Shown here in pieces: positions 19,794-31,206 of a stretch of 64,000 nt of DNA (the first letter of the stretch is position 1; each line of letters begins with the position of its first letter). The notes below the pieces were generated by a model. That model made no database searches. It was not told where the DNA came from and saw only the letters and a list, made by a program, of their open reading frames with translations. Both the position numbers and the translations under genes were made by a program. This stretch comes from Planctomycetota bacterium. GTDB taxonomy: Bacteria > Planctomycetota > JAJSAM01 > JAJVHW01. The stretch spans positions 1,312,001 to 1,376,000 of the forward strand of contig CBDFJG010000003.1 of the NCBI GenBank assembly GCA_965248445.1. The letters are read 5' to 3'.

Positions 19794-20648
19794 ATGCGCC
19801 GCACAGCTCTGGCGCTCGCACTCGGCGCCATGATCGCGACTCCGGGATGCCTGAAGCTCAAGGACCGCACGATCGTGCTCCCCGACGGTTCCGGGAAGAT
19901 CGAGATGCGCGTCGGCTTCCCGAACTCCTCGATGAAGGAGATGCACAAGGTCTCGGAGGAGGAGAGCTTTGATCTGGCCGCGGAGCAGCTGAAGCAGATG
20001 CGCCGTGACTGGAAGGGGTTCAGCGCCTTCACGCGCCCGGTCAAGTCCGAGGACGGCGGCTGGACGTACGTGACGTTCGACGCCTACTTCGACGACCTGA
20101 ACGCGGTGCAGGTCTGGAAGGAAGACTTGACCACGGAGGAGCGCGTCCTGCAGAAGTCGTTCGAACTCGAGGCAATCGAGGGCGGCGGATTCGACCTCAC
20201 CTTCCGCCACCAGACGCTCGTGGACATCACGGCGAAGTTCGCGAAGCAGGCGGACGAGCGCAGCGGCGACATGTCCGAAGAGGATCGCCGCACGGCGAAG
20301 GTCCTGACCGACGCGATGCGCCTGGCGTTCGACGGGCTCGCACTCGACTTCGCGGTCGAGATGCCGGGCGACGTCACGCGGGCGACGGGTTTCTCGAACA
20401 CCACCACCGGTTCCGCGGCGCTGCACGTCACCCTCGACGACCTTCTCGACGAGAAGAAGGTGAAGAAGCTCGCCGAGGTGAAAGAGCTGACCGTTCGCTG
20501 CGGCCCCTCGAACTGGAAGAAGTCCGACATCGAGGACTTCAAGGAGGAGCTCGCGGACGCGAAGGCGGAGTGGAAGAAGCTCCTGGCCGAGGTCGAGGCC
20601 AAGGAGAAGTCCGACAAGGTTCCCGCCGGGGCCGGAGGCGGCAAGTAG
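19794..20648 (+). CDS. Hypothetical lipoprotein
   Basis: Lipobox-like TPGC, then IVLPDGSGK and VEMPGDV motifs; coding-like codon bias. Confidence 0.75.
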   Translation: MRRTALALALGAMIATPGCLKLKDRTIVLPDGSGKIEMRVGFPNSSMKEMHKVSEEESFDLAAEQLKQMRRDWKGFSAFTRPVKSEDGGWTYVTFDAYFDDLNAVQVWKEDLTTEERVLQKSFELEAIEGGGFDLTFRHQTLVDITAKFAKQADERSGDMSEEDRRTAKVLTDAMRLAFDGLALDFAVEMPGDVTRATGFSNTTTGSAALHVTLDDLLDEKKVKKLAEVKELTVRCGPSNWKKSDIEDFKEELADAKAEWKKLLAEVEAKEKSDKVPAGAGGGK

Positions 20649-20674: not shown

Positions 20675-20703
20675 GCAAACCGCGGCCCCCCGTTTCGCGT
20701 CTA
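20675..20703 (+). promoter_or_regulatory. Candidate ECF autoregulatory promoter
   Basis: GCAAAC-N17-CGTCTA (AAC...CGT ECF consensus), 9 nt upstream of the ECF start codon. Confidence 0.6.
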
Positions 20704-20712
20704 GGCCGGCAG

Positions 20713-21240
20713 ATGGAGTCCGGAGACGACCCCCTCACGGCCCGCTTCAAGGCGCTCGGCGAGCGCCTGATGGGCACGGCGTACTTCGCCGTGGGACATC
20801 GCGAAGACGCGCGTGAGGTCGTCCAGGAAGCGTTCGTCCGCTGCTGGCGGCACCGCAAGAAGGTGCCGGAGCTGCGCGACCTCGACGCCTGGATCTTCTC
20901 CGTGCTCCTGAACACGGCTCGGGACCGGCGGCGGCGCAATCGCGTCCGCCGCTCCGAGTCGCTGCCGACGGAGGACGCGATGCCACAGGCCACTGACAAT
21001 CCGGTCCGCCGCGCCGGCGCCCGCGAGGCGCTCGGACGTGTTCGGGCCGCGATCCACACGCTCCCCGAAGCGGAGCGTGAGGTGTTCCTGCTGCGCCAGA
21101 ACGGGGACGCGACGTACGAGCGCATCGCCGAACTGGTGGGCTGCCCCGTCGGAACCGCCAAGACGAGGATGCGCTCTGCACTGATCCGCTTGCGCCGGGC
21201 AATGGAGCCCGCGCGCGGTGCGGTCGGGCGGGGCGCCTGA
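20713..21240 (+). CDS. ECF RNA polymerase sigma factor
   Basis: EDAREVVQEAF, AWIFSVLLN, LPEAEREVFLL, YERIAELVGCPVGTAKTRMRSA. Confidence 0.95.
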   Translation: MESGDDPLTARFKALGERLMGTAYFAVGHREDAREVVQEAFVRCWRHRKKVPELRDLDAWIFSVLLNTARDRRRRNRVRRSESLPTEDAMPQATDNPVRRAGAREALGRVRAAIHTLPEAEREVFLLRQNGDATYERIAELVGCPVGTAKTRMRSALIRLRRAMEPARGAVGRGA

Positions 21241-21258
21241 CGCCCAGGAGGTCCGACG

Positions 21259-24200
21259 ATGACCACGGACCGCGACCGCGACGACCTGCTCTCTTACCTG
21301 TACGGCGCGCTGCCCGACGAGGAGCGCACCGTCCTGGAGAAGCGACTGGCTGACGACCCCGAACTGCGCGCACGGCTCGACGCCGCCCGCGCGGAGAAGG
21401 ATACGCTCGCCAAGGCCGCGGAGATCTCCGATCCGGGCGTGTCTCTTCGGCCCCCACGCGCCAAGGTGTTCACGATGCGCAAGTTCGGCATGGCCGCCGG
21501 CGTGCTGCTGGCGCTCGGACTGGGCTTCACCGGGTTCCGCGCATCGCACCGCGCCACCCTGGCCGGCGACAACCCGGTCCTCGTGGCCAAGGGTCCCGGC
21601 AGCTTCGTGCCCGGCACCCCCGCGGAGTACGAACTCCTGCTCACCGACGCAGACGGTGACGCAATCGACGGCACCGTCACGGTCCACGTCCTCGGCGCGG
21701 GGAACGAGATCCGCGCGAAGACGGACGCGACACTCGACAACGGCCGCGCGACAGTGCAGCTCGAACCCGAGACCGGCGACCCCGGCGAGCGGGTGCGCGT
21801 GCAGTTCGTCGCAACGACGAAGGACGGCGAACGCATCACACAGACTCTGCCGCTCAAGGACGGCACCCGCGTGGTCGCACGCGTCAGCACGGACAAGCCG
21901 CTCTACCGGCCCGGCGAGACCGTGCGCATCCGCAGCATCGCGCTCGAGGCGTTCCGCTTACAGCTCCCCGGCGACGTTCCCGTCAAGATGACGATGACGG
22001 ATCCACGCGGCGGCGTCGTGTTCGACCACGTGCTCGACACGCAGAACGGCGCCATCGCGTGGGAGCACGCGCTTCCGCGGGACGTGGCCGGCGGGACATA
22101 CACCGTCTCGGTCACCGGCACCAAGGACGACGGTCTCGTCGCACCGGCGAAGCGCACGTTCGAAGTGCGTTCGTACCGCGTGCCGCGCCTGCGCTTCGAC
22201 ATGGAACTCGATCGCGACACGTACGGACCCGGCGACGCGGGCACGGCCCAGCTCAGCGTCGAGCGCGCCGAGGGCGGCAGCCCCACCGGCGCGACCGCCG
22301 AGGCGGTGCTGCGCGTGGACGGCGAGGAGATCGCCCGCGAGACACTGACCGTCGGTGCGGACGGCGGCGTCGTGGTTCCGTTCACTCTTCCGATGCAGAT
22401 CGCCGAGGGGCGCGGCCAGCTGAGCGTCACCGTCGAGGACGGAGGCGTGGTCGAGACGACCGCCAAGACCGTTCCGATCGCGCTGGGCCGCCTGGACGTC
22501 GAGCTGTACCCTGAGGGCGGCGAGCTCGTCGCCGGTATCCCGTCGCGCGTGTACTTCCGCGCCCGCACCCCCGCCGGTGAGCCGGCCGACGTCGCGTTCG
22601 AGGTGCTCGACGGCGACGAGGTCGTCGCAGCGGCCAACGTCGACGTGCGCGGCATGGGAGTGTTCGAGCTGACCCCGCGTGACGGCGCGAACTACACGCT
22701 CGCGGCGATCTCGCCACTCGACGTGGACCTCGCGTGCGAGATCCCCGCCGTCCTGACGAGCGGAGCCGTGCTCCGCGCGCTCGACGAGGCGACGGCGGCC
22801 AAGGCGCCCATTCGCGTCAATCTGCAGGCCGCTGCGAGCGGCACGTATGCCGTCGAGGCCTGGTGCCGCGGCGGCCGTCTGGCGCGCATGCGCGTCGAGC
22901 TCGACCGGTTCCGTGATCGCGAGATCGAGATCCCGACGGCCTCCGAGGTCGGCGGCGTCATCCGCGTGACTGTCTTCGGTCCGGACGGCAACCCGCTCGC
23001 CGAGCGCCTCGTGACGCGTCAGCCGCCGCGCAGCCTCTCGCTGACGGCCGTGGCCGCGAAGCAGAAATACGCGCCGCGCGAGCGCGTCGAGGTCAAGGTC
23101 CGCGCATTCGGCCCGGACGGCCCCGTCGCGAACGCGATCCTGGGCGCAAGCGTCGTCGACGAGTCGGTGCTCGCGCTGGCGAACGACGAGGACACAGCTC
23201 CGATGCCGATGCACTTCCTGCTCGGCATGGAGGTGGATGAACTCGAGAAGACCGAGGTCTACGCCGAGGGTCCGGACGCGCAGCACGCAGTGGATCTGCT
23301 GCTCGGCGTGCAGGGCTGGCGCCGCTTCGGGTGGAAGAACGTCGATGAGTTCCTGGCAGCGCATCCCGAGGACGGCCTGCGGCTCGTGGCGGTCTCCGCC
23401 GACGCGCAGACCGTTGCCCGCGACAACCGAGCCGGTGCGGATCAGGCGGTCGCGTACGGCATGGAGAGGTTCGACGAACGCTCGATGGAGCGCGGCTGGG
23501 CCGGCGGCATCCTGCTGATCGTCATCGGCGGCGTGCTGCTCTCGATCCGGTCGCTCTGGCAGCGACGCATGCTGCCCGCGATCGTCGGCGTCGTACCGGC
23601 GCTCTTGCTGGCCGCCGCGTTCGCGTTCTCGCGGTCTGACATGCAGTACGCGATGGCGCCGGGCATGGACGCCCGCGTGGAGATGGAAGCCGGAGGATGG
23701 CCCGCCGACGCCGTCGCCATGGGCGGCGGGGCGGCGGGTGATCCGCTCGCGGACTGGCTCGGAGCCGACGGCGCCCCCGCGCCGCGACGGGCCGCGCCCG
23801 CGCTCGTCGAACCCAACGTGCTGCGCCTGGCCGACGCGGAAGCGAAGAAGAACGCCGACGCCCGCGTCGTCGGACTCGCCGATCTCGCCGGGAGGCTCCG
23901 CCGCGCCAAGCGCCCGATGGAGGGCGCCGAGAAGGAACTGCTCGACAAGTTCGCCGACATGGATCTCGAGATGGAGGAACTCCGCGTCATGAAGGACGCG
24001 AAGCAGATCCTCGTTCGCGAGTACGCGTACCAGGCGCAGAAGAACGACGGCACGCGCAGCGACTTCACCGAGGTCCTGTACTGGAACGCTCTCGTCATCA
24101 CCGACGAGAAGGGCGAAGCGACCTTCGCGTTCGACACGTCGGACTCGATCACTTCGTTCCGCGTTGCCGTGGACGGCCACGACGGAAAGGGAGCGCTCGG

Positions 24201-26130
24201 CGCGGCCGACTCGCTGTTCGAGAACCGCGTGCCGTTCTACGTAGAGCCGAAGTTCCCGGTGGAGCTGTCCGCCGGTGACGAGCTGTTCCTACCCGTCGTC
24301 GTCGCCAACGACACCGACGCACCTATGCCCGTGACACTCAGCATCGTGGCCGGCGACCCTCTGTTGCAGGTCCGCGGAGACGCGACCTTCACGACCGAGG
24401 CCGCGGCCGGTGCGCGCACGCGCATCCTGGTGCCGTTCACGGTCGCCCAGGGCACCGGTAACGGGACGATCACACTTCGCGCCGTGGCCGGCTCCGGACA
24501 CGACGACGTCACGATGCGCGCGATCCCGGTCGTGCCCCGCGGCTACCCGCGCACGGTTGCCAGGAGCGGCGTGATCGAGGAGCGAGACGGCACCGAGTTC
24601 ATGCTGCCCGCCGACCTGAACCCCGTGACGGTCACTGGCGCGCTGAAGCTCTATCCCTCCACTCTGGCGACACTCGTCGACGGCCTCGAAGGCATCCTGC
24701 GCGAGCCGAACGGCTGCTTCGAGCAGGCGTCGTCGTCCAACTACCCGAACGTGCTGGTCATGCGCTACCTTCAGGACCAGGGCGCGGCGGCCCCGGCCGT
24801 GGCGCGCCGGGCGCGCGATCTCATGAAGTCGGGCTACGCGAAGCTCGCCGGCTACGAGTGCAGTGAGCTCGGCTACGAGTGGTTCGGCGGTGATCCAGGC
24901 CACGAGGCGCTCAGCGCCTACGGACTCATGGAGTTCGTGGACATGCGCGCGGTCTTCGACGTCGACGAGGAGATGATCGGCCGCACGCGCAAGTGGCTGC
25001 TCGAGCGCCGCGACGGCGACGGCGGCTTCAGGCGCAATGCACGGGCCCTCGACTCCTTCGGCGCAGCGCCGGACGAGATCACGAACGCCTACATCACGTG
25101 GGCACTCACCGAGGCCGGCGAGAATGCCGAACTCGGCAAGGAACTGAACAAGCTGATCGCGGACGGCAAGACGAGCGAAGACCCCTACGTGGTCGGACTC
25201 GCCGCCAACGCCGCGCTCAACACCGAACACGCCGACAAGGGCGCACTGGTCAAGCGGCTGGCCGGCATGCAGCAGGCGGACGGACACTTCGACGGGAAGA
25301 CCACGTCGATCACGTCGAGCCGTGGCAGCAACCTGCACATCGAGACCACCTCGATCGCCGCGCTGGCGTTCACGAAGAGCGGCACGCACCTCGCCGACGG
25401 CGAGGAGGCGATTGCGTGGCTCCTCCAGCAGCGCAGCGGCGGCTCGTTCGGCACGACGCAGGCGACGATCATGGCGCTCCGCGCTCTGGTCACCCACGCG
25501 CAGAACGCACGCAAGACGTCGACGTCGCACGACGTGGCCGTCATCGTGAACGGCGAGCAGGTGGCCACCCGCCACGTGGCGGAAGGCTCCACCGGCGTCA
25601 TCCTGTTCGAGCGCACCGTCATCGACGCACTGCGCCCCGGCGAGAACACGATCGAGGTCACCGCCAGCGGCGACGAGACGCTGCCGTGGGCGCTCACGCT
25701 GTCGTACGCGACGGCGCTGCCCGCCAGCAGCCCGGACTGCCCCGTCACGGTCGCGACCTCACTCGACACCGACACGGCGGTCGAGGGCGACACCGTCGGC
25801 CTGCACGTCGAGCTGACGAACACGACCGCCGAGGGCATCCCGATGACACTCGCGCGCGTCGCGCTGCCGGCCGGTCTCGAGCCGCGCACCGAGCAGCTCG
25901 AGGAGCTCAAGAAGGCCGGCGACATCGACTTCTGGGAGACCCGCCCGCGCGAGATCACGCTCTATTACCGGGCGCTCGCACCGAGCGCGCAGAAGGTGCT
26001 CGATCTCGACCTGACCGCGGCGGTGCCCGGCAAGTTCGAGGGCCCCGCGTCCTCGGCGTACCTCTACTACGGCGACGACGCCAAGCAGTGGGCGGCGCCG
26101 CTCGGGATCACGATCCAGCCGCGGCGCTGA
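21259..26130 (+). CDS. Alpha-2-macroglobulin family protein with an N-terminal anti-sigma-like domain and TM anchor
   Basis: LLSYLYGALPDEERTVLEKRLADDP N-terminus, TM, TDKPLYRPGETV (MG2), RSDFTEVLYWN..DSITSFR, thioester motif GCFEQ (24712-24726), SSAYLYY. Confidence 0.92.
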   Translation: MTTDRDRDDLLSYLYGALPDEERTVLEKRLADDPELRARLDAARAEKDTLAKAAEISDPGVSLRPPRAKVFTMRKFGMAAGVLLALGLGFTGFRASHRATLAGDNPVLVAKGPGSFVPGTPAEYELLLTDADGDAIDGTVTVHVLGAGNEIRAKTDATLDNGRATVQLEPETGDPGERVRVQFVATTKDGERITQTLPLKDGTRVVARVSTDKPLYRPGETVRIRSIALEAFRLQLPGDVPVKMTMTDPRGGVVFDHVLDTQNGAIAWEHALPRDVAGGTYTVSVTGTKDDGLVAPAKRTFEVRSYRVPRLRFDMELDRDTYGPGDAGTAQLSVERAEGGSPTGATAEAVLRVDGEEIARETLTVGADGGVVVPFTLPMQIAEGRGQLSVTVEDGGVVETTAKTVPIALGRLDVELYPEGGELVAGIPSRVYFRARTPAGEPADVAFEVLDGDEVVAAANVDVRGMGVFELTPRDGANYTLAAISPLDVDLACEIPAVLTSGAVLRALDEATAAKAPIRVNLQAAASGTYAVEAWCRGGRLARMRVELDRFRDREIEIPTASEVGGVIRVTVFGPDGNPLAERLVTRQPPRSLSLTAVAAKQKYAPRERVEVKVRAFGPDGPVANAILGASVVDESVLALANDEDTAPMPMHFLLGMEVDELEKTEVYAEGPDAQHAVDLLLGVQGWRRFGWKNVDEFLAAHPEDGLRLVAVSADAQTVARDNRAGADQAVAYGMERFDERSMERGWAGGILLIVIGGVLLSIRSLWQRRMLPAIVGVVPALLLAAAFAFSRSDMQYAMAPGMDARVEMEAGGWPADAVAMGGGAAGDPLADWLGADGAPAPRRAAPALVEPNVLRLADAEAKKNADARVVGLADLAGRLRRAKRPMEGAEKELLDKFADMDLEMEELRVMKDAKQILVREYAYQAQKNDGTRSDFTEVLYWNALVITDEKGEATFAFDTSDSITSFRVAVDGHDGKGALGAADSLFENRVPFYVEPKFPVELSAGDELFLPVVVANDTDAPMPVTLSIVAGDPLLQVRGDATFTTEAAAGARTRILVPFTVAQGTGNGTITLRAVAGSGHDDVTMRAIPVVPRGYPRTVARSGVIEERDGTEFMLPADLNPVTVTGALKLYPSTLATLVDGLEGILREPNGCFEQASSSNYPNVLVMRYLQDQGAAAPAVARRARDLMKSGYAKLAGYECSELGYEWFGGDPGHEALSAYGLMEFVDMRAVFDVDEEMIGRTRKWLLERRDGDGGFRRNARALDSFGAAPDEITNAYITWALTEAGENAELGKELNKLIADGKTSEDPYVVGLAANAALNTEHADKGALVKRLAGMQQADGHFDGKTTSITSSRGSNLHIETTSIAALAFTKSGTHLADGEEAIAWLLQQRSGGSFGTTQATIMALRALVTHAQNARKTSTSHDVAVIVNGEQVATRHVAEGSTGVILFERTVIDALRPGENTIEVTASGDETLPWALTLSYATALPASSPDCPVTVATSLDTDTAVEGDTVGLHVELTNTTAEGIPMTLARVALPAGLEPRTEQLEELKKAGDIDFWETRPREITLYYRALAPSAQKVLDLDLTAAVPGKFEGPASSAYLYYGDDAKQWAAPLGITIQPRR

Positions 26131-26175
26131 CGTCGTCGGCGATTGCGACGTGCATGGGCTGATCGCGCTTCAGCG
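25958..26175 (+). repeat. Direct repeat copy 1 (intact A2M 3' end plus a kinase 3'-end remnant)
   Basis: Aligns with 26731-26945. Confidence 0.9.
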
Positions 26176-26613
26176 GATCGCGACATGCACCCGCACCCGA
26201 TCCGGCGCCACGTGGTGGTCGAAGTCGCCGCTGTACGTGCGATCGAGAGGTGCCTCCCAGATCTGCTGCCACGCCTGGATCAGCGTGTCCGGTTGCGGGC
26301 CGCTCACGTCGTGTACGGCGTAGCGCGCAGCAGGCACGGTCGTCGCCACGAGTCCTTCAGGCAGGTCGTCCACGTCCACGTCGTCCGCGACACGGCATCC
26401 CAGGAGCATCGTGTAGGGCTGCGTGTGGTCGCCCTCGTACTCGTAGTAGAGCGAGTAGAGGTCGTCGTTCACGCGGCCCGGGATCTGCGCCGCACCGCCG
26501 CCGCCGAAGAACGCGCCCCACAGCGCTCCGATCGGCGCCGGGTCTGCGTTGGACGCGCGGCAGGTGCGCCCGACGAGCACGAATCTGGGCAGGGACTCGA
26601 TCTCGTGCGACAT
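26170..26613 (-). CDS. GyrI-like small-molecule (effector) binding protein
   Basis: IGALWGAF, YSLYYEYEGDHTQPY, WQQIWEAPLDRTYSGDF; GGAGG RBS before ATG 26613. Confidence 0.9.
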   Translation of the reverse strand: MSHEIESLPRFVLVGRTCRASNADPAPIGALWGAFFGGGGAAQIPGRVNDDLYSLYYEYEGDHTQPYTMLLGCRVADDVDVDDLPEGLVATTVPAARYAVHDVSGPQPDTLIQAWQQIWEAPLDRTYSGDFDHHVAPDRVRVHVAIR

Positions 26614-26730: not shown

Positions 26731-26945
26731 CGCTCTACCACCGGTCCCTCGCTCCGAACGCGCGGAAGGTGCTCGATCCGGAGCTCCTGGCCGCGGCCGT
26801 GCCCGGCAAGTTCGAGGGTCCCGCGTCCTCGGCGTACCTACGGCGACGACGCCAAGCAGTGGGCCGCGCCCTCGGGATCACGATCCAGCCGCGGCGCTGA
26901 CATCCTCCGCGATCGCCCGGTGCATCGGCTGGTCGCGCATCAGCG
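26731..26945 (+). repeat. Direct repeat copy 2 (frameshifted A2M 3' remnant plus the intact kinase 3' end)
   Basis: Aligns with 25958-26175; small indels break the A2M frame. Confidence 0.9.
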
Positions 26946-29900
26946 ACTCGCGGTACTCCGCGGGAGCGTTGTCGCGCAGGAACTGCAGCCGCCGCCACGC
27001 CTCGTCGAGGTGCTCGCGCTCGCCGGTGACGCGCCACATCAGGTGTTCCGCGTGCATGCGCACGCGGTAGCCCATCCTGTCGCGGTAGCGTTCGTGGGAT
27101 GCACGAGCCTCGCTCGCCACGCTCTCCTCGCCGGCCGCAGCCCGCAGCAGGAGCGAGATCGTGCTCTCGTTCGCCAGCCCACTCGCGTCGCCCAGTTCGT
27201 GCGCGCGCGCGAGGTGCGCGGCGGCTTCCTCCTCCCGCCCGAGCGCATTCAAGCAGTCGCCCAGCGCCTGCTCGGCGGCTGCCTCCAGGTCCTTCGCCCC
27301 GCACTCCCGCGCGATTTCGATCGCTTCAAGCGCACTCCGCTCCGCGTCGGCATACCGACCCTGATAGGTGCGTGCGATCGTCGTGCCCCCGAGCGCATGC
27401 GCGACGCCGCGGCGGTACGCCACGTCCTCGCTGAGCGCGATCTGACGCTCATGCATCTCGCAGGCCTCGTCGAAGCGTCCCATGACCGCTAGGGCGAGCG
27501 CGAGGTTGCCCAGGCCGATGGCCTCCCCGCGGCGGTAGCCGATCTCGCGGGCGAGCCGCAGCCGTTCGTCCTGCAGTTCCATCGACCGCGCGTACATGCC
27601 GGCCGCAGTGTAGCTGCCCGCCAGATTGCCGAGGGCGACGGCGGCGTAGCGCACGTCGCCGACCTCGCGTGAGATCGCCAACGCGCGCTCGTCCCACTCG
27701 AGCGCCGCCGTGAAGTCGCCGAGCGTCCACATCGCGACCCCCAGACCGCCGCAGGCCTTCGCCTCCAGCTTGCGATCGCCGATCTCTCGCGCGATCGCAA
27801 GCGCGGCGTGCTGATGCTGTGCGGCCGTCTCGTTGTCGCCCAGATAGCCCGATGCTGCGCCGAGGTGCCCCTCGATCGCGCTCTCGAGCCGCTGGTCACC
27901 CAGCTCCCGTGCGGCCTCGAGCGCCGACGCGAGAACCTCGATTGCCTCGGCCGGGCTGCCGCGCATGACGAGCGACCAGCCGCGCTGCGCGAGGATGTCC
28001 GTCGCCGACTTCCGGTCGCCCAGATCGTTCGCGAGTTGCAGCGCCTCGGCGAGCATGGCGTCTCGCTCATCGGTCCGCCCGAGGTGTTCGAGTGATGCGC
28101 TCACGCGGCGCTGGATGGGCAGCCGCGCCGCACCCTGCAGAGCCGTGCCGGCGCCCAGAGCACGGTGACCGAGTCGGGCGGCTTCGTCACGTGACCGCGG
28201 CTCCAGGTGCTCGAGCGCCGCGGTCAGATACGGCACCGCCCTGACGCCCGACTCGGCCTCCAGGAAGTGCGACGCCAGCTTCGCGGCGGTGGCTCCCCAA
28301 ACCTCCGCCGGGGTGACGGACTCCGCGAGCGCCCGGCGCTCGAGCGCATCTCCGAGCACTGCGTGGTACTCGCGACGCAGCGCCGGCGAGAGCCGCTCGT
28401 AGAGCAACTCCTGCACCTGGTGATGATCGAAGACGAACCGCGGACCTGCAGCATGGACCAGCGCGTGACGCTGCTCGATGCGCCCGAGCGCGCGCAACAC
28501 CGGGATGCGCGCCTGACCGAGCGCCTCGGTCACGAGCAGCGGATCGAACTCGAAGCCGCAGCATGCAGCGACGTCGAGAATCTCCTGATCGGACTCATCG
28601 AGTGCGGCGAGACGCGTCTCGAAGATGTCCTTCACGGACGCCGGCAGTTCGATTCGCTCGATGATCCCCGTGGTGGACCACGATCCGTCGTCGCCGCGGT
28701 GCAACAAGCCCGACTCCCGCAGCGTGCGGATGATCTCGAATACGAAGAAGGGATTGCCGTCCGACGTTCGGGCCAGTCGCCAGCCGAGTTCGTCGGCGAG
28801 CCGCTCCGAGTGGAACGCCTCGACCAGAAGCTCACGGAGGTCGCGCGGCCCGAGTCGCGAGAGAGTCACGCGGCTCACGTGCTGAAGGCGATCGAGTCCC
28901 GACAACCATCGCTCCGGCAGTCCCGGCCGCGTCGTTCCGAGTAACACGATGCGGTGCCCGCGCGCCCCGAGAGCCAGCGCCTGAAACAGCGCACGACCCT
29001 CCTGTGGCGCGAAGTGCAGGTCCTCCACCACGAGCACGACAGGTCGGATCCGCGCGAGCCCGCGAAGTGCCCCGACGACCACCGCCGCCAGCGAGTCCGG
29101 CGTCAACGGCGTGGCGTCGTCGGGCGGCGGCAGCCCGCGCACGAGCGCCGAGATGCTCCTCACCAGAGAGAGCGAGCCGGGAAGGAGTGCCGACAGCGAA
29201 CGCTCGACCGCGTCGGCGCCGAAGTGATCCCGCAGCGCTGAAACTACGGCGCCGTTCGCCATCGCCGCGCCGAACGGAGGATAGCCGCCGAAGAGCCAGT
29301 CGAACTCCGTCCCCGCGCGCTCGAGACGCAGAGCCAGTTCGTCCAGCAGACGGGACTTCCCGATACCCGGCTCGCCCTGCACGAGGACCACGCCCCCATC
29401 GCCACGTTGCGCCGCAGCGAATGCGGCGTCGAGTGCAGCGCTGGAATTGTCGCGGCCGTGCAACGCCGTCGCGGCGGGCGCGCGGCGACGGCGGGCCGCC
29501 AGCCGTTCACCGAGCCGCGCACGGCGCTGTGTCCACCACGCGCTCTCCTCGCCGTCATCGAACAGTCGGCACAGTTCCTCCGCCGTCTGCACGCGTTTGT
29601 CAGGGTCTTTCGCCAGGAGTGTGTGGACCACCTCCTCGAAGAACCGCGAGACGCCCGGGTTGATCTCGCCGAGGCGGCGCGGGACCGTGGTCAGGACGCT
29701 ACGGACGACCGTCGCGACGTCGTCCCCGCGAAACAGGTGGGTACCCGACGAGAGCTCATAGAGGACGATCCCCAGGGCGTGGAGATCGGCGCGCCCGTCC
29801 ACGGCCTGCTCCGCCGAGAACTGCTCGGGCGATGCGTAGTGGAGCGACCCGACGAACGCGCCGGTCCGCGAGAGTTCGTGCGTCGCATCGATGACGCGCG

Positions 29901-30564
29901 CGACTCCGAGGTCGAGCAGCTTGACGGTGTGATCGGGTGTCACCAGCACATTGGCCGGCTTGACCTCGCGGTGCACCGCGCCCGCCGCGTGGATCGCACC
30001 CAGAGCGGATGCGATGTCGCGCCCGAGCTGACGGCAGAGTTCCTCGGGCACCTGCCCGAGTTCCTCCGACAGCGACTGCAGCGGCTGGCCTTCGACGTAC
30101 TCCATGACCAGGAACGGAGCGTGTGCATCGCCCTCATCGGCCCGCGCATCGAGCACGCGCACGACGCCGGGATGCTGCACACCGGCGCCGATTTGCGCCT
30201 CGCGCAGAAAGCGGTCCCTGTGCGTGCCGGTCCTCACCAGGTGCGGATGCAGGAGCTTGATTGCGACCACCTCCCCGCCCCCGGTGGGCTGGGCGCGGAA
30301 CACGGCGCCCATGCCGCCTTCACCGATCGGCTCGAGGAGCTGGTAGCCCTCGACTTCCGTCGGCGTCGCAGACGGTGCGTCGGACGCGTCCTCGGAGAGC
30401 ACGGCCGACTCGGAGTCGTGGTGGCGCAGCAGTTCTTCGACCTCGGCGCGCAGGATTGCATCGCCCGAGCACGCCGTGTCGAGCGCGCCGGCCCGGTCGG
30501 CAGCCGAGACCCCCCGCAAGGCCTCGAACACTTCGGCCATGCGCCGAAAGCGGTCGTCGCTCAC
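26878..30564 (-). CDS. Ser/Thr protein kinase with an AAA/STAND-type ATPase domain and TPR repeats
   Basis: IGEGGMGAVF, VAIK, HREVKPAN, DLG, YASPEQ; GEPGIGKS, VVEDLH, GNPFF; C-terminal TPRs. GTG start overlaps the ECF stop (GTGA). Confidence 0.92.
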   Translation of the reverse strand: MSDDRFRRMAEVFEALRGVSAADRAGALDTACSGDAILRAEVEELLRHHDSESAVLSEDASDAPSATPTEVEGYQLLEPIGEGGMGAVFRAQPTGGGEVVAIKLLHPHLVRTGTHRDRFLREAQIGAGVQHPGVVRVLDARADEGDAHAPFLVMEYVEGQPLQSLSEELGQVPEELCRQLGRDIASALGAIHAAGAVHREVKPANVLVTPDHTVKLLDLGVARVIDATHELSRTGAFVGSLHYASPEQFSAEQAVDGRADLHALGIVLYELSSGTHLFRGDDVATVVRSVLTTVPRRLGEINPGVSRFFEEVVHTLLAKDPDKRVQTAEELCRLFDDGEESAWWTQRRARLGERLAARRRRAPAATALHGRDNSSAALDAAFAAAQRGDGGVVLVQGEPGIGKSRLLDELALRLERAGTEFDWLFGGYPPFGAAMANGAVVSALRDHFGADAVERSLSALLPGSLSLVRSISALVRGLPPPDDATPLTPDSLAAVVVGALRGLARIRPVVLVVEDLHFAPQEGRALFQALALGARGHRIVLLGTTRPGLPERWLSGLDRLQHVSRVTLSRLGPRDLRELLVEAFHSERLADELGWRLARTSDGNPFFVFEIIRTLRESGLLHRGDDGSWSTTGIIERIELPASVKDIFETRLAALDESDQEILDVAACCGFEFDPLLVTEALGQARIPVLRALGRIEQRHALVHAAGPRFVFDHHQVQELLYERLSPALRREYHAVLGDALERRALAESVTPAEVWGATAAKLASHFLEAESGVRAVPYLTAALEHLEPRSRDEAARLGHRALGAGTALQGAARLPIQRRVSASLEHLGRTDERDAMLAEALQLANDLGDRKSATDILAQRGWSLVMRGSPAEAIEVLASALEAARELGDQRLESAIEGHLGAASGYLGDNETAAQHQHAALAIAREIGDRKLEAKACGGLGVAMWTLGDFTAALEWDERALAISREVGDVRYAAVALGNLAGSYTAAGMYARSMELQDERLRLAREIGYRRGEAIGLGNLALALAVMGRFDEACEMHERQIALSEDVAYRRGVAHALGGTTIARTYQGRYADAERSALEAIEIARECGAKDLEAAAEQALGDCLNALGREEEAAAHLARAHELGDASGLANESTISLLLRAAAGEESVASEARASHERYRDRMGYRVRMHAEHLMWRVTGEREHLDEAWRRLQFLRDNAPAEYRESLMRDQPMHRAIAEDVSAAAGS

Positions 30565-31139
30565 GCGTCCGGGCCCGCGCCCAGCTCGCGGCGCAGCCAA
30601 GCACGCGCCATGTACCAGTCCGCCTCGACGGTCTTTCGGGCGATGCCGACGACGTCGGCGGTCTCCTCCATCGTGAGCCCCCCGAAGAACCTCAGTTCCA
30701 CGACCCGGGCCTTGCGCGCGTCACTCTCGGCAAGGCGCTCCATGGCGGCGTGCAGATCGAGCACATCCAGCCCGCGCTGCTCCTGCGCGTCGAGCACCCC
30801 GTCGAGAGTCACTCGCACGCGGTCACCGCCTCGCTTCAGCGCCCCCCGTGTGCGCGCGTGGTCAACGAGGATCTGTCGCATGAGACGTGCTGCAATTCCG
30901 AGGAAGTGCCCGCGGCCCTGGATGTCCGGCGGGGCTCCGCCGAGCAGTCGCAGGTACGCTTCGTGAATGAGAGCCGTGGCCTGCAGCGTGTGTCCGACTC
31001 TCTCGCGGCGCAGGTAGCCGTCGGCCAGCCGGCGCAACTCCGCGTACAGGTGCGTGGTCAGTTCGCTGGTGGCCGACTCGTCGCCGAGCCTGGCACGATC
31101 CAGGATCTCCCTCGTGAGCGAGGGCCGCGCTTCCGACAT
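30561..31139 (-). CDS. ECF sigma factor, TIGR02999/ECF43-like (kinase-associated)
   Basis: LYAELRRLA, HTLQATALIHEAYLRL, MRQILVDHAR..KRGG, VVELRFFGGL, DWYMARAWL. Confidence 0.93.
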   Translation of the reverse strand: MSEARPSLTREILDRARLGDESATSELTTHLYAELRRLADGYLRRERVGHTLQATALIHEAYLRLLGGAPPDIQGRGHFLGIAARLMRQILVDHARTRGALKRGGDRVRVTLDGVLDAQEQRGLDVLDLHAAMERLAESDARKARVVELRFFGGLTMEETADVVGIARKTVEADWYMARAWLRRELGAGPDA

Positions 31140-31206
31140 CGTTCGCCTTTCACTCCCCGCGCCCCAGTCTCCCAGACCGGGGCGCGAGAGCAAACGGCTC
31201 CAGGTT

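Follow-up and report, generated by a model that had tools for sequence, protein, structure and literature searches.

An ECF sigma factor and an anti-sigma domain fused to a thioester macroglobulin: a candidate protease trap and receptor in one planctomycete protein

The locus

The window, the whole stretch of DNA analysed here, is 64,000 nucleotides (nt) of contig CBDFJG010000003.1 (assembly GCA_965248445.1, Planctomycetota). It holds a gene for an extracytoplasmic function (ECF) sigma factor and, directly downstream, a gene for a protein in which a class I anti-sigma domain (ASD) is joined through a transmembrane (TM) helix to an alpha-2-macroglobulin (A2M) with a thioester motif. This fusion protein is a candidate for a protease trap that is also a signalling receptor. 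The features of the unit, with residues (aa) numbered within the fusion protein and macroglobulin domains abbreviated MG, are as follows.

20676-20702, plus strand: predicted ECF-dependent autoregulatory promoter (-35 CAAACC at 20676-81, 16 nt, -10 CGTCT at 20698-702)
20713-21240, plus strand: ECF sigma factor gene, 175 aa (open reading frame (ORF) list, Pfam, NCBIfam)
21259-26130, plus strand: ASD-TM1-macroglobulin fusion gene, 1,623 aa, predicted three-pass membrane protein
21265-21456, plus strand: class I ASD, zinc-free form, aa 3-66, with helices at 3-14, 20-32 and 34-54
21484-21540, plus strand: TM1, aa 76-94, basic on its N-terminal side, with M78-A79-A80 at 21490-21498
21577-23160, plus strand: MG1 to MG5 and the first half of MG6, aa 107-634 (AlphaFold2 model, Foldseek)
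23161-23424, plus strand: linker (LNK-like) region, aa 635-722, with conserved DLLLGxQGWRRF
23428-23640, plus strand: stalk helix and two-helix membrane hairpin (TM2 at aa ~748-766, loop SLWQRR, TM3 at aa ~772-794)
23641-24009, plus strand: bait-like region, aa 795-917, disordered and hypervariable
24010-24078, plus strand: alpha'NT trigger segment, with R933 and F936 corresponding to human A2M R732 and F735
24664-25491, plus strand: thioester domain (TED), aa 1136-1411, PF07678, with GCFEQ (aa 1152-1156) at 24712-24726
25741-26118, plus strand: C-terminal MG8 domain, with conserved YLYY at 26059-26070, the expected thioester-shielding face

An initial annotation made from the letters alone had described the ECF gene, a gap of 18 nt, the 1,623-aa ORF, a promoter-like AAC-N17-CGTC, the N-terminal peptide LLSYLYGALPDEERTVLEKRLADDPELR and the GCFEQ motif, and all of these were found. 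The gap, counted from the ECF stop to the fusion ORF, contains AGGAGG at 21246-21251, and the peptide is aa 10-37 of the fusion protein. The pattern AAC-N17-CGTC lies at 20678-20701 and ends 11 nt 5' of the ECF ATG. The predicted promoter as a whole ends 10 nt before that ATG, giving a very short leader. The genome contains one full copy of the fusion gene.

The sigma factor and its anti-sigma domain

The sigma factor consists of sigma2 and sigma4 domains only (Pfam Sigma70_r2 at its aa 13-77, r4_2 at aa 109-160) and scores 78.9 bits against TIGR02937, for which the cut-off is 42.9. At the N-terminus of the fusion protein the AlphaFold2 model has three confident helices within aa 3-54, with pLDDT values of 91-95 over aa 11-50. 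This ASD has no Pfam match, and its NCBIfam anti-sigma matches are sub-threshold (E 1e-4 and 2e-3). Because its own sequence gives no match above threshold, its identity rests on homologues and models.

Homologues were taken as 120 listed of the 278 found. Sixty-four of the 120 begin with an ASD, as judged by eye, and make up the alignment (A1) to which all counts out of 64 refer. A profile of 37 ASDs searched against the PDB gave five matches at E ≤ 1, four of them anti-sigma factors and the fifth TRAF6 (0.87). The sole significant match was 3hug (E 7e-4), an entry titled 'conserved membrane protein' that we take to be RslA; the others were RsiW (0.19), DdvA (0.3) and RsrA (0.44). When the 37 ASDs were aligned alone, eight of them matched zf-HC2, and the ASD of the window was not among the eight.

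The complex predicted for the sigma factor and the ASD scored 0.83 in three runs, with 0.02 for the best of three controls. As the pair is of a textbook type, its resemblance to structures already solved may be enough to earn such a score. The mark applied to such scores is reached by 116 of 157 solved pairs and by 2 of 215 mismatched pairs. Contact agreement was at least 95% and partner pLDDT at least 86. The contacts of lowest error are those between helix 1 of the ASD and the final helix of sigma4. Residues 56-75 are of low confidence in the monomer model; in the complex aa 60-66 touch the sigma factor, and sigma2 residues are also at the interface. These predicted contacts resemble the dual sigma interface of ASDs described by Casas-Pastor 2020 (PMC7406223). 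The reading of the N-terminus as an anti-sigma domain, put forward in the initial annotation along with complex prediction as a check, is borne out by the profile matches, by zf-HC2 in homologues and by the predicted complex. We regard it as very likely that the ECF and class I anti-sigma pair is real, and it is well supported by the modelled complex that the ASD would hold and inhibit the co-encoded sigma factor.

A zinc motif, Hx3Cx2C, occurs in 19 of the 64 homologues. In the window protein the same place reads RLADDPEL; no Cys or His zinc ligand is present in its ASD, its first Cys being aa 493, and 45 homologues are without the motif. Membership of the zinc-binding anti-sigma (ZAS) class was rejected for the window protein because Hx3Cx2C is absent. 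The motif in the 19 homologues could be taken to mean that the signal is cytoplasmic, zinc or redox acting at the ASD, with the macroglobulin as a passenger. For a protein that lacks the ligands this is excluded, and for the family we give it almost no credence, the more so as the zinc of membrane-bound ASDs is regarded as structural (PMC7406223). Since 45 of the 64 proteins, the window protein among them, have no zinc ligands, the signal should come from outside.

Conservation of the pair

Two scans confirmed 615 and 610 loci, and the best 80 from each, 160 in all, were compared for gene order. In 35 of these MG2 lacked its beginning and in 11 the sequence upstream was too short, so that 114 were used. 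A co-oriented ECF gene ends 12-196 nt before the fusion gene in all 34 loci with the main-type ASD; an ECF gene is directly upstream in none of the 78 loci with an ASD-less macroglobulin and in both loci with a different, zinc-type ASD, these counts being not independent since the loci are related and near-duplicates are included. A survey of this kind had been proposed in the initial annotation, and the homologues do have adjacent ECF genes as it expected; of the refuting conditions it named, none that the analysis covered went against its idea.

The ECF sequence has a match at E ≤ 1e-30 in 12 of 300 other sampled genomes of the phylum, and all 12 orthologues directly precede an ASD-macroglobulin fusion. 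A search with the ASD profile alone found 67 proteins (127-2,000 aa), 66 of which have macroglobulin domains; the remaining protein is 142 aa long and ends just past TM1. Among the ECF orthologues found, the sigma factor of the window is thus a member of a clade that occurs only ahead of ASD-A2M genes.

Among the matches listed, the closest named homologues come from Planctomycetota. Cultured carriers exist, those named being four Novipirellula entries, Rhodopirellula maiorica SM1 and strain Poly30. Single members are labelled 'zf-HC2 domain-containing' or 'anti-sigma factor RsiW' by databases. One full ECF and fusion locus (L067:1780-7731) is in a genome labelled Alcaligenaceae and is nested among Planctomycetota sequences, through either transfer or misbinning. 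In two other loci (L034, L054) the fusion gene is present as two ORFs with a frameshift near the linker, which may be assembly errors.

The promoter

The 5.4-Mb genome of the window has 1,408 occurrences of the pattern AAC-N17-CGTC, which by itself is therefore without significance. Its weight comes from orthologous loci. Thirty-seven fusion loci were entered and two were dropped for want of the ECF anchor motif. The site AA[ACT][CT]-spacer-CGTC is found 5' of the ECF gene in 26 of the 35 (one of the 26 at an off position), compared with a mean of 1.7 and a maximum of 6 in 1,000 shuffles; the pattern was composed after the sequences had been viewed, and its spacing leaves out several visibly similar sites with shorter spacers. 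With a looser pattern the site is present in five of the seven loci checked downstream among ECF orthologues. Since the promoter is kept across orthologous loci, autoregulation of the sigma factor from a promoter ahead of its own gene is likely. The promoter suggested in the initial annotation has therefore gained from its conservation, and its single-site pattern has proved uninformative.

A weight matrix built from the 26 sites gave 428 matches of at least 12.5 bits in the genome of the window, with no credible target set; the site of the operon itself ranks tied 17th-18th. Among the neighbours in 38 loci, conservation amounted to lineage-level synteny only (at most four loci per cluster), with no protease or repair gene. 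A scan for sigma-70 promoters and terminators found no promoter and no plus-strand terminator.

The top-scoring match to the ECF-clade promoter matrix is held by seven copies of one repeated element (G000 C1:237861, C3:163466, C3:216612, C3:1790908, C4:1914603, C4:1942281, C4:1962158). The element is probably mobile, and the match may be chance.

Membrane anchoring

TM1 is preceded by a basic flank, with a mean of 3.5 Lys and Arg against 0.4 Asp and Glu in the 64 homologues. Two further hydrophobic helices form a hairpin between linker and bait and so interrupt the macroglobulin. Kyte-Doolittle means over 19 residues are 2.1 for TM2, 2.4 for TM3 and 1.5 for TM1, and the AlphaFold2 model has long helices at 74-104, 724-767 and 771-794. 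The hairpin is present in 63 of the 64 aligned proteins, and its loop has more Lys and Arg than Asp and Glu in 63 of 64. It is also present in 54 of 55 further homologues, the exception being a partial protein. Outside the alignment, 56 proteins were listed, 45 of them with the anchor motif, and four of the 45 have a hydrophobic segment at the hairpin position: three of these proteins are truncated at the N-terminus and cluster with the fusion clade, and in the fourth the segment is single and weak.

From the hairpin and the basic TM1 flank, the predicted topology is ASD in, MG1 to the first half of MG6 and linker out, loop in, and bait and remainder out. The fusion protein is thus predicted from its sequence to be three-pass. 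A TM helix after the ASD had been recognised in the initial annotation; its single-TM picture was wrong, the conserved TM2-TM3 hairpin having been overlooked.

TM1 carries a degron-like XAA motif. A79 is kept in 55 of the 64 homologues, A80 in 60 and both in 53. Two adjacent alanines lie early in TM1 in 58 of the 64, as against 21 for TM2 and 26 for TM3, a count inflated because TM1 is alanine-rich overall. In RseA, RsdA and RsgI cleavage by the site-2 protease exposes the XAA sequence, which then serves as a tag for ClpXP (bioRxiv 491043, PMC12203970). The genome encodes M50 proteases (PF02163) and ClpX (TIGR00382), all above cut-off. A signal-peptidase-like site after TM1 was considered and rejected, as it is not conserved among the 64 homologues.

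The macroglobulin ectodomain

Matches to the Pfam models MG2, A2M_BRD, A2M and TED exceed their cut-offs; bMG10, at 23.3 bits, is under its cut-off of 26.2. The macroglobulin models have mean pLDDT values of 84.0 and 87.6 and Foldseek E values of 1e-38 and 3e-41. The fusion protein is a member of the alpha-2-macroglobulin superfamily, with MG ring, CUB, TED and C-terminal MG domain. The complete A2M with intact GCFEQ of the initial annotation is present as to domains and motif; it is interrupted by the two hydrophobic helices.

The Foldseek matches of the MG1-MG6 part are C3, CD109, C4 and A2ML1, and the MG domains are named by analogy with the family. An MG1-like sandwich (aa 107-201) is absent from ASD-less relatives and from a second fusion type described below. 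The distance from the start to MG2 has a median of 223 aa in the fusion clade and 100 aa in ASD-less proteins. The bait is disordered at aa 792-917 (pLDDT < 50), has the lowest column conservation of any region (0.17) and varies from 57 to 218 aa in length.

The TED is the best-conserved region (0.65 over the 64 homologues). C1153 and Q1156 are invariant in the 64, and GCxEQ is found in all 64 as well as in each of 49 additional full-length proteins. In MG8, Y1603 and Y1604 are present in 64 of 64; these aromatic residues presumably shield the thioester, as in the family. In the alpha'NT segment R933 is kept in 64 of 64 and F936 in 62 of 64, the alignment with A2M starting at 930:729. Their counterparts R732 and F735 belong to the plug-in-channel trigger of A2M (PMC9352918). 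The model of aa 920-1623 has TM-scores of 0.67-0.70 to native C3, A2ML1 and CD109, against about 0.35 to C3b. Judged by sequence and model the thioester trap looks functional, and its machinery, held intact in the initial annotation, is indeed the best-conserved structured part of the protein.

The alignment to 6tav places D1265 opposite A2M N1088, so that the catalytic His is missing. With D1265 in place of the His, amine-directed capture as in protease inhibitors is suggested. A complement-like role in tagging or adhesion may also be considered, in which the cleaved thioester would attach the cell to prey, host or matrix and the sigma factor would report contact. Insect TEP1, CD109, C3 and C4 are among the nearest solved sequences or folds, and six of the 64 homologues have His at position 1265. 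We consider such a role very improbable. If the envelope is diderm, as is usual for Planctomycetota, a protein anchored in the cytoplasmic membrane would be periplasmic. Moreover, 54 of the 64 homologues have Asp at 1265, whereas it is His at that site of the thioester domain that gives hydroxyl reactivity (PMC7864068).

Insect TEP1 matches at E 2.6e-29, as against 5.5e-9 for 4ziu, and by sequence the macroglobulin is closer to animal TEP/A2M proteins than to E. coli YfhM. It is not of the YfhM type that the initial annotation had cited for bacterial A2Ms. Membership of type I (YfhM/ECAM) was rejected because there is no Cys before aa 493, hence no lipobox, and no pbpC was found: the best hit to TIGR02073 in the genome, which is 92% complete, reaches 19.4 bits against a cut-off of 494, and pbpC is not among the recurrent neighbours of fusion loci. 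Type II (MagD) was rejected because CxEQ is intact and the unit has two genes; MagD is without CxEQ and lies in the six-gene mag operon (PMC5764988). Being closer to TEP/A2M and without a detectable pbpC, the protein falls outside both bacterial types, I and II, as PMC4498604 and PMC5764988 set them out.

A second fusion type and ASD-less relatives

A second type of fusion was found in two proteins (P0043, P0048) and in two loci (L043:4747-10110, L108:551-4879). It has a zinc ASD and one TM helix, with neither MG1 nor hairpin, and the ECF gene upstream in both loci with context is of different sequence. A FastTree was built from 194 rows over the C-terminal 675 columns. In it a weakly supported branch sets apart the main type together with five truncated sequences, and the members of the second type form a clade (0.949) that lies among the ASD-less forms. 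An approximately unbiased (AU) test, run on a 32-row subset picked after the 194-row tree, rejects joining both fusion types (p=1.9e-5; SH-aLRT 85 and 98). On these trees the ASD-macroglobulin fusion appears to have arisen at least twice.

In 4 of the 78 ASD-less loci (L070, L078, L087, L095) the macroglobulin gene directly precedes an ECF gene and a separate anti-sigma-like gene, which shows a recurring link of macroglobulin traps to ECF control. The macroglobulins of these four loci (L087:5689-12543 and its counterparts) are secreted relatives from Undibacterium and Lentisphaerota. In L087 and L095 the anti-sigma-like gene is followed by a gene for a small signal-peptide protein whose Cys pattern we take to be HiPIP-like. 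Upstream in L070 are another ECF/ZAS pair and a gene that we presume to be VIT-like. More generally, the ASD-less, secreted TEP-like macroglobulins of bacteria (e.g., P0029, L031 and L061) start at MG2 and appear to be without MG1. Their hosts are Myxococcota, Planctomycetota, Lentisphaerota, Bacteroidota and some Pseudomonadota.

A proposed mechanism

On balance we lean towards an autoregulated two-gene ECF/anti-sigma unit in which one protein is both protease trap and receptor and a protease triggers release of the sigma factor. The cytoplasmic ASD would bind and hold the sigma factor, which would read its own promoter; this step has computational support. TM1 and the hairpin are predicted to anchor the protein in such a way that the MG ring, the bait and the thioester domain all lie on the outer side of the cytoplasmic membrane. 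As in other members of the family, a protease would then cut the bait, the alpha'NT segment would retract and the thioester would be exposed, leaving the protease covalently bound beside the membrane, probably via lysines.

A second step is needed because the chain from aa 1 to ~800 is still attached to TM1 once the bait has been cut. This is the weakest part of the scheme: TM1 would have to be exposed by some second event. The tethered protease might clip the short stalk that follows TM1, taking the part of the site-1 protease. Alternatively, the collapse might be passed on by way of the linker to TM2-TM3, so that TM1 is no longer covered. From there on, events may follow those of class I systems, the site-2 protease cutting TM1, the XAA end becoming exposed and ClpXP removing the ASD. 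The freed sigma factor would make more of itself and a fresh trap in place of the spent one. As the macroglobulin is the only ectodomain of the anti-sigma factor, its state should govern access to TM1. A more specific proposal, which we put forward tentatively and would not be surprised to see fail, is that a conformational switch of the macroglobulin is coupled across the membrane to transcription, that the hairpin and TM1 gate the anti-sigma helix and that any bait-cutting protease, once chained beside the membrane, could act as the site-1 protease of the cascade.

Several points weigh against this scheme. Thioester formation, trapping and sigma factor release are inferred by analogy, and the topology is derived from hydropathy and charge bias only. 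Bait cleavage alone yields no short single-pass substrate; the usual substrate of regulated intramembrane proteolysis (RIP) is single-pass, whereas this protein has three predicted TM helices and no conserved site-1 motif. No conserved cleavage motif was found after TM1 in the 64 homologues, where stalk conservation is 0.26. The alanine fraction of TM1 is 0.30, as against 0.17 and 0.20 in TM2 and TM3. Neither the matrix scan of the genome nor the neighbours in the 38 loci revealed a regulon beyond the operon. According to Harwood et al. (PMC9352918) the trigger spreads from the bait towards the C-terminus and so away from where the hairpin lies, an objection tempered by the first linker helix forming the floor of the collapsing channel. 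As the second fusion type has no hairpin, the hairpin is not needed for every fusion. Finally, since ASD-less relatives lie beside an ECF and a separate anti-sigma gene, fusion could merely join a regulator to its target.

On that last account general envelope stress would act through a resident site-1 protease, which would cut the stalk irrespective of whether the bait is intact, and the macroglobulin, held at the membrane and encoded in the same operon, would be the protective output rather than the sensor. Besides the four ASD-less loci, it draws on the fact that a cut in the bait leaves TM1 unfreed. We think it unlikely, though a serious contender. The macroglobulin is the sole outer domain through which TM1 could be reached, and the hairpin and MG1-like domain are confined to the main fusion clade and kept in nearly all of it, even though TM1 would suffice as a tether.

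A further possibility is that the macroglobulin senses and the release is conformational or thioester-driven, loss of the thioester (through amines or hydrolysis) or binding of a ligand shifting TM2-TM3 against TM1 and so loosening or exposing the ASD. The conserved hairpin, which joins the linker to the membrane, would suit such a device. Methylamine alters the shape of human A2M, whereas that of Salmonella A2M is unaltered (PMC4498604). The family has retained a long, hypervariable, disordered bait and the alpha'NT residues, and the XAA motif points to proteolysis of TM1; this possibility is accordingly rated improbable. As to what would set off protease-triggered release, the initial annotation had thought of predation, which is unsupported.

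Significance

No description of an anti-sigma-macroglobulin fusion was found in the literature searched. A 2026 A2M review does not contain 'sigma', and the supplement of the 2020 ASDI paper contains none of the searched terms. The architecture was thus nowhere found described, and as signalling it is a variation on the known ECF/anti-sigma theme. Bacterial macroglobulins described so far are passive traps, and the anti-sigma fusion comes with a readout of its own. Fusing the conserved promoter to a reporter would reveal under which conditions, or by which competitors or predators, the trap is sprung, and would also show whether a shape change of the macroglobulin can cross the membrane. A macroglobulin predicted to be three-pass, with its hairpin between linker and bait, is new to the field as an architecture and offers a way to test how the trigger propagates.

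If the more specific, tentative proposal above is true, the protein would be a broad-specificity, single-use, self-replacing protease receptor, of a kind of fusion that bacteria would have made at least twice. The system would also provide a protease counterpart to the lysozyme receptor RsiV. The swappable bait suggests a programmable protease sensor.

Neighbouring genes

A 284-aa gene (19794-20648, plus strand) lies ahead of the promoter. Its product has a lipoprotein-like start, LALALGAMIATPGC, and no Pfam or NCBIfam match; a homologue sits 5' of the ECF gene in one related locus. At the other end of the unit, the last ~57 codons of the macroglobulin gene and its 3' flank (25958-26168) are duplicated at 26731-26938, 770 nt downstream, with some indels and 183 of 214 nt identical. 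Between the copies lies a Cass2/GyrI-like gene (minus strand, 26170-26613), apparently an insertion accompanied by a duplication. A second ECF gene (PF07638, ECF-kinase type), directly followed by a gene for a Ser/Thr kinase-AAA-TPR protein, occupies 26878-31193 on the minus strand and is convergent with the macroglobulin operon.

Comparison with known systems

The unit resembles class I pairs regulated by RIP (RseA/sigmaE, RsiW/sigmaW, RslA/sigmaL and RskA/sigmaK) in its N-terminal helical ASD, in a gene placed right after that of the ECF, in the XAA near the inner end of the TM helix, in the conserved ECF-type promoter and in predicted contacts to both sigma domains. It differs from them in its ectodomain, a thioester macroglobulin of 1,500 aa, and in its predicted three-pass anchoring, with extra helices inside the sensor.

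Type I A2Ms (E. coli ECAM/YfhM, Salmonella SaA2M) likewise have CxEQ, bait, the MG/CUB/TED architecture and inner-membrane anchoring. The window protein lacks their lipobox and two extra N-terminal MG domains, no pbpC was found in its genome, and it has a sigma-binding domain, which is undescribed for type I A2Ms. With animal TEP1, A2M, A2ML1, CD109, C3 and C4 it shares the predicted eight-MG layout and the alpha'NT Arg and Phe, TED and MG8 residues. In contrast to these animal proteins, it has a hairpin in the position taken by the anaphylatoxin domain of complement, and its N-terminus is a cytoplasmic transcription inhibitor.

Large outside domains are also found on other ASDs, for example DUF3520 with a von Willebrand domain in the ECF226 anti-sigma factor and laminin G in that of ECF46 (PMC7826278 supplement). 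Macroglobulins are unmentioned in the covered part of the ECF group descriptions of this 2021 reclassification supplement (PMC7826278).

The closest functional analogue is RsiV/sigmaV of Bacillus subtilis. RsiV is anti-sigma factor, lysozyme receptor and inhibitor in one; its outer domain binds and inhibits the attacker and thereby triggers its own destruction (PMC5014341). No conserved signal-peptidase-like site was seen past TM1 in the 64 homologues of the window protein. RsiV binds lysozyme non-covalently, whereas the window protein is proposed to be a broad-range covalent trap that is itself cut. The likeness is one of function, and no homology is claimed.

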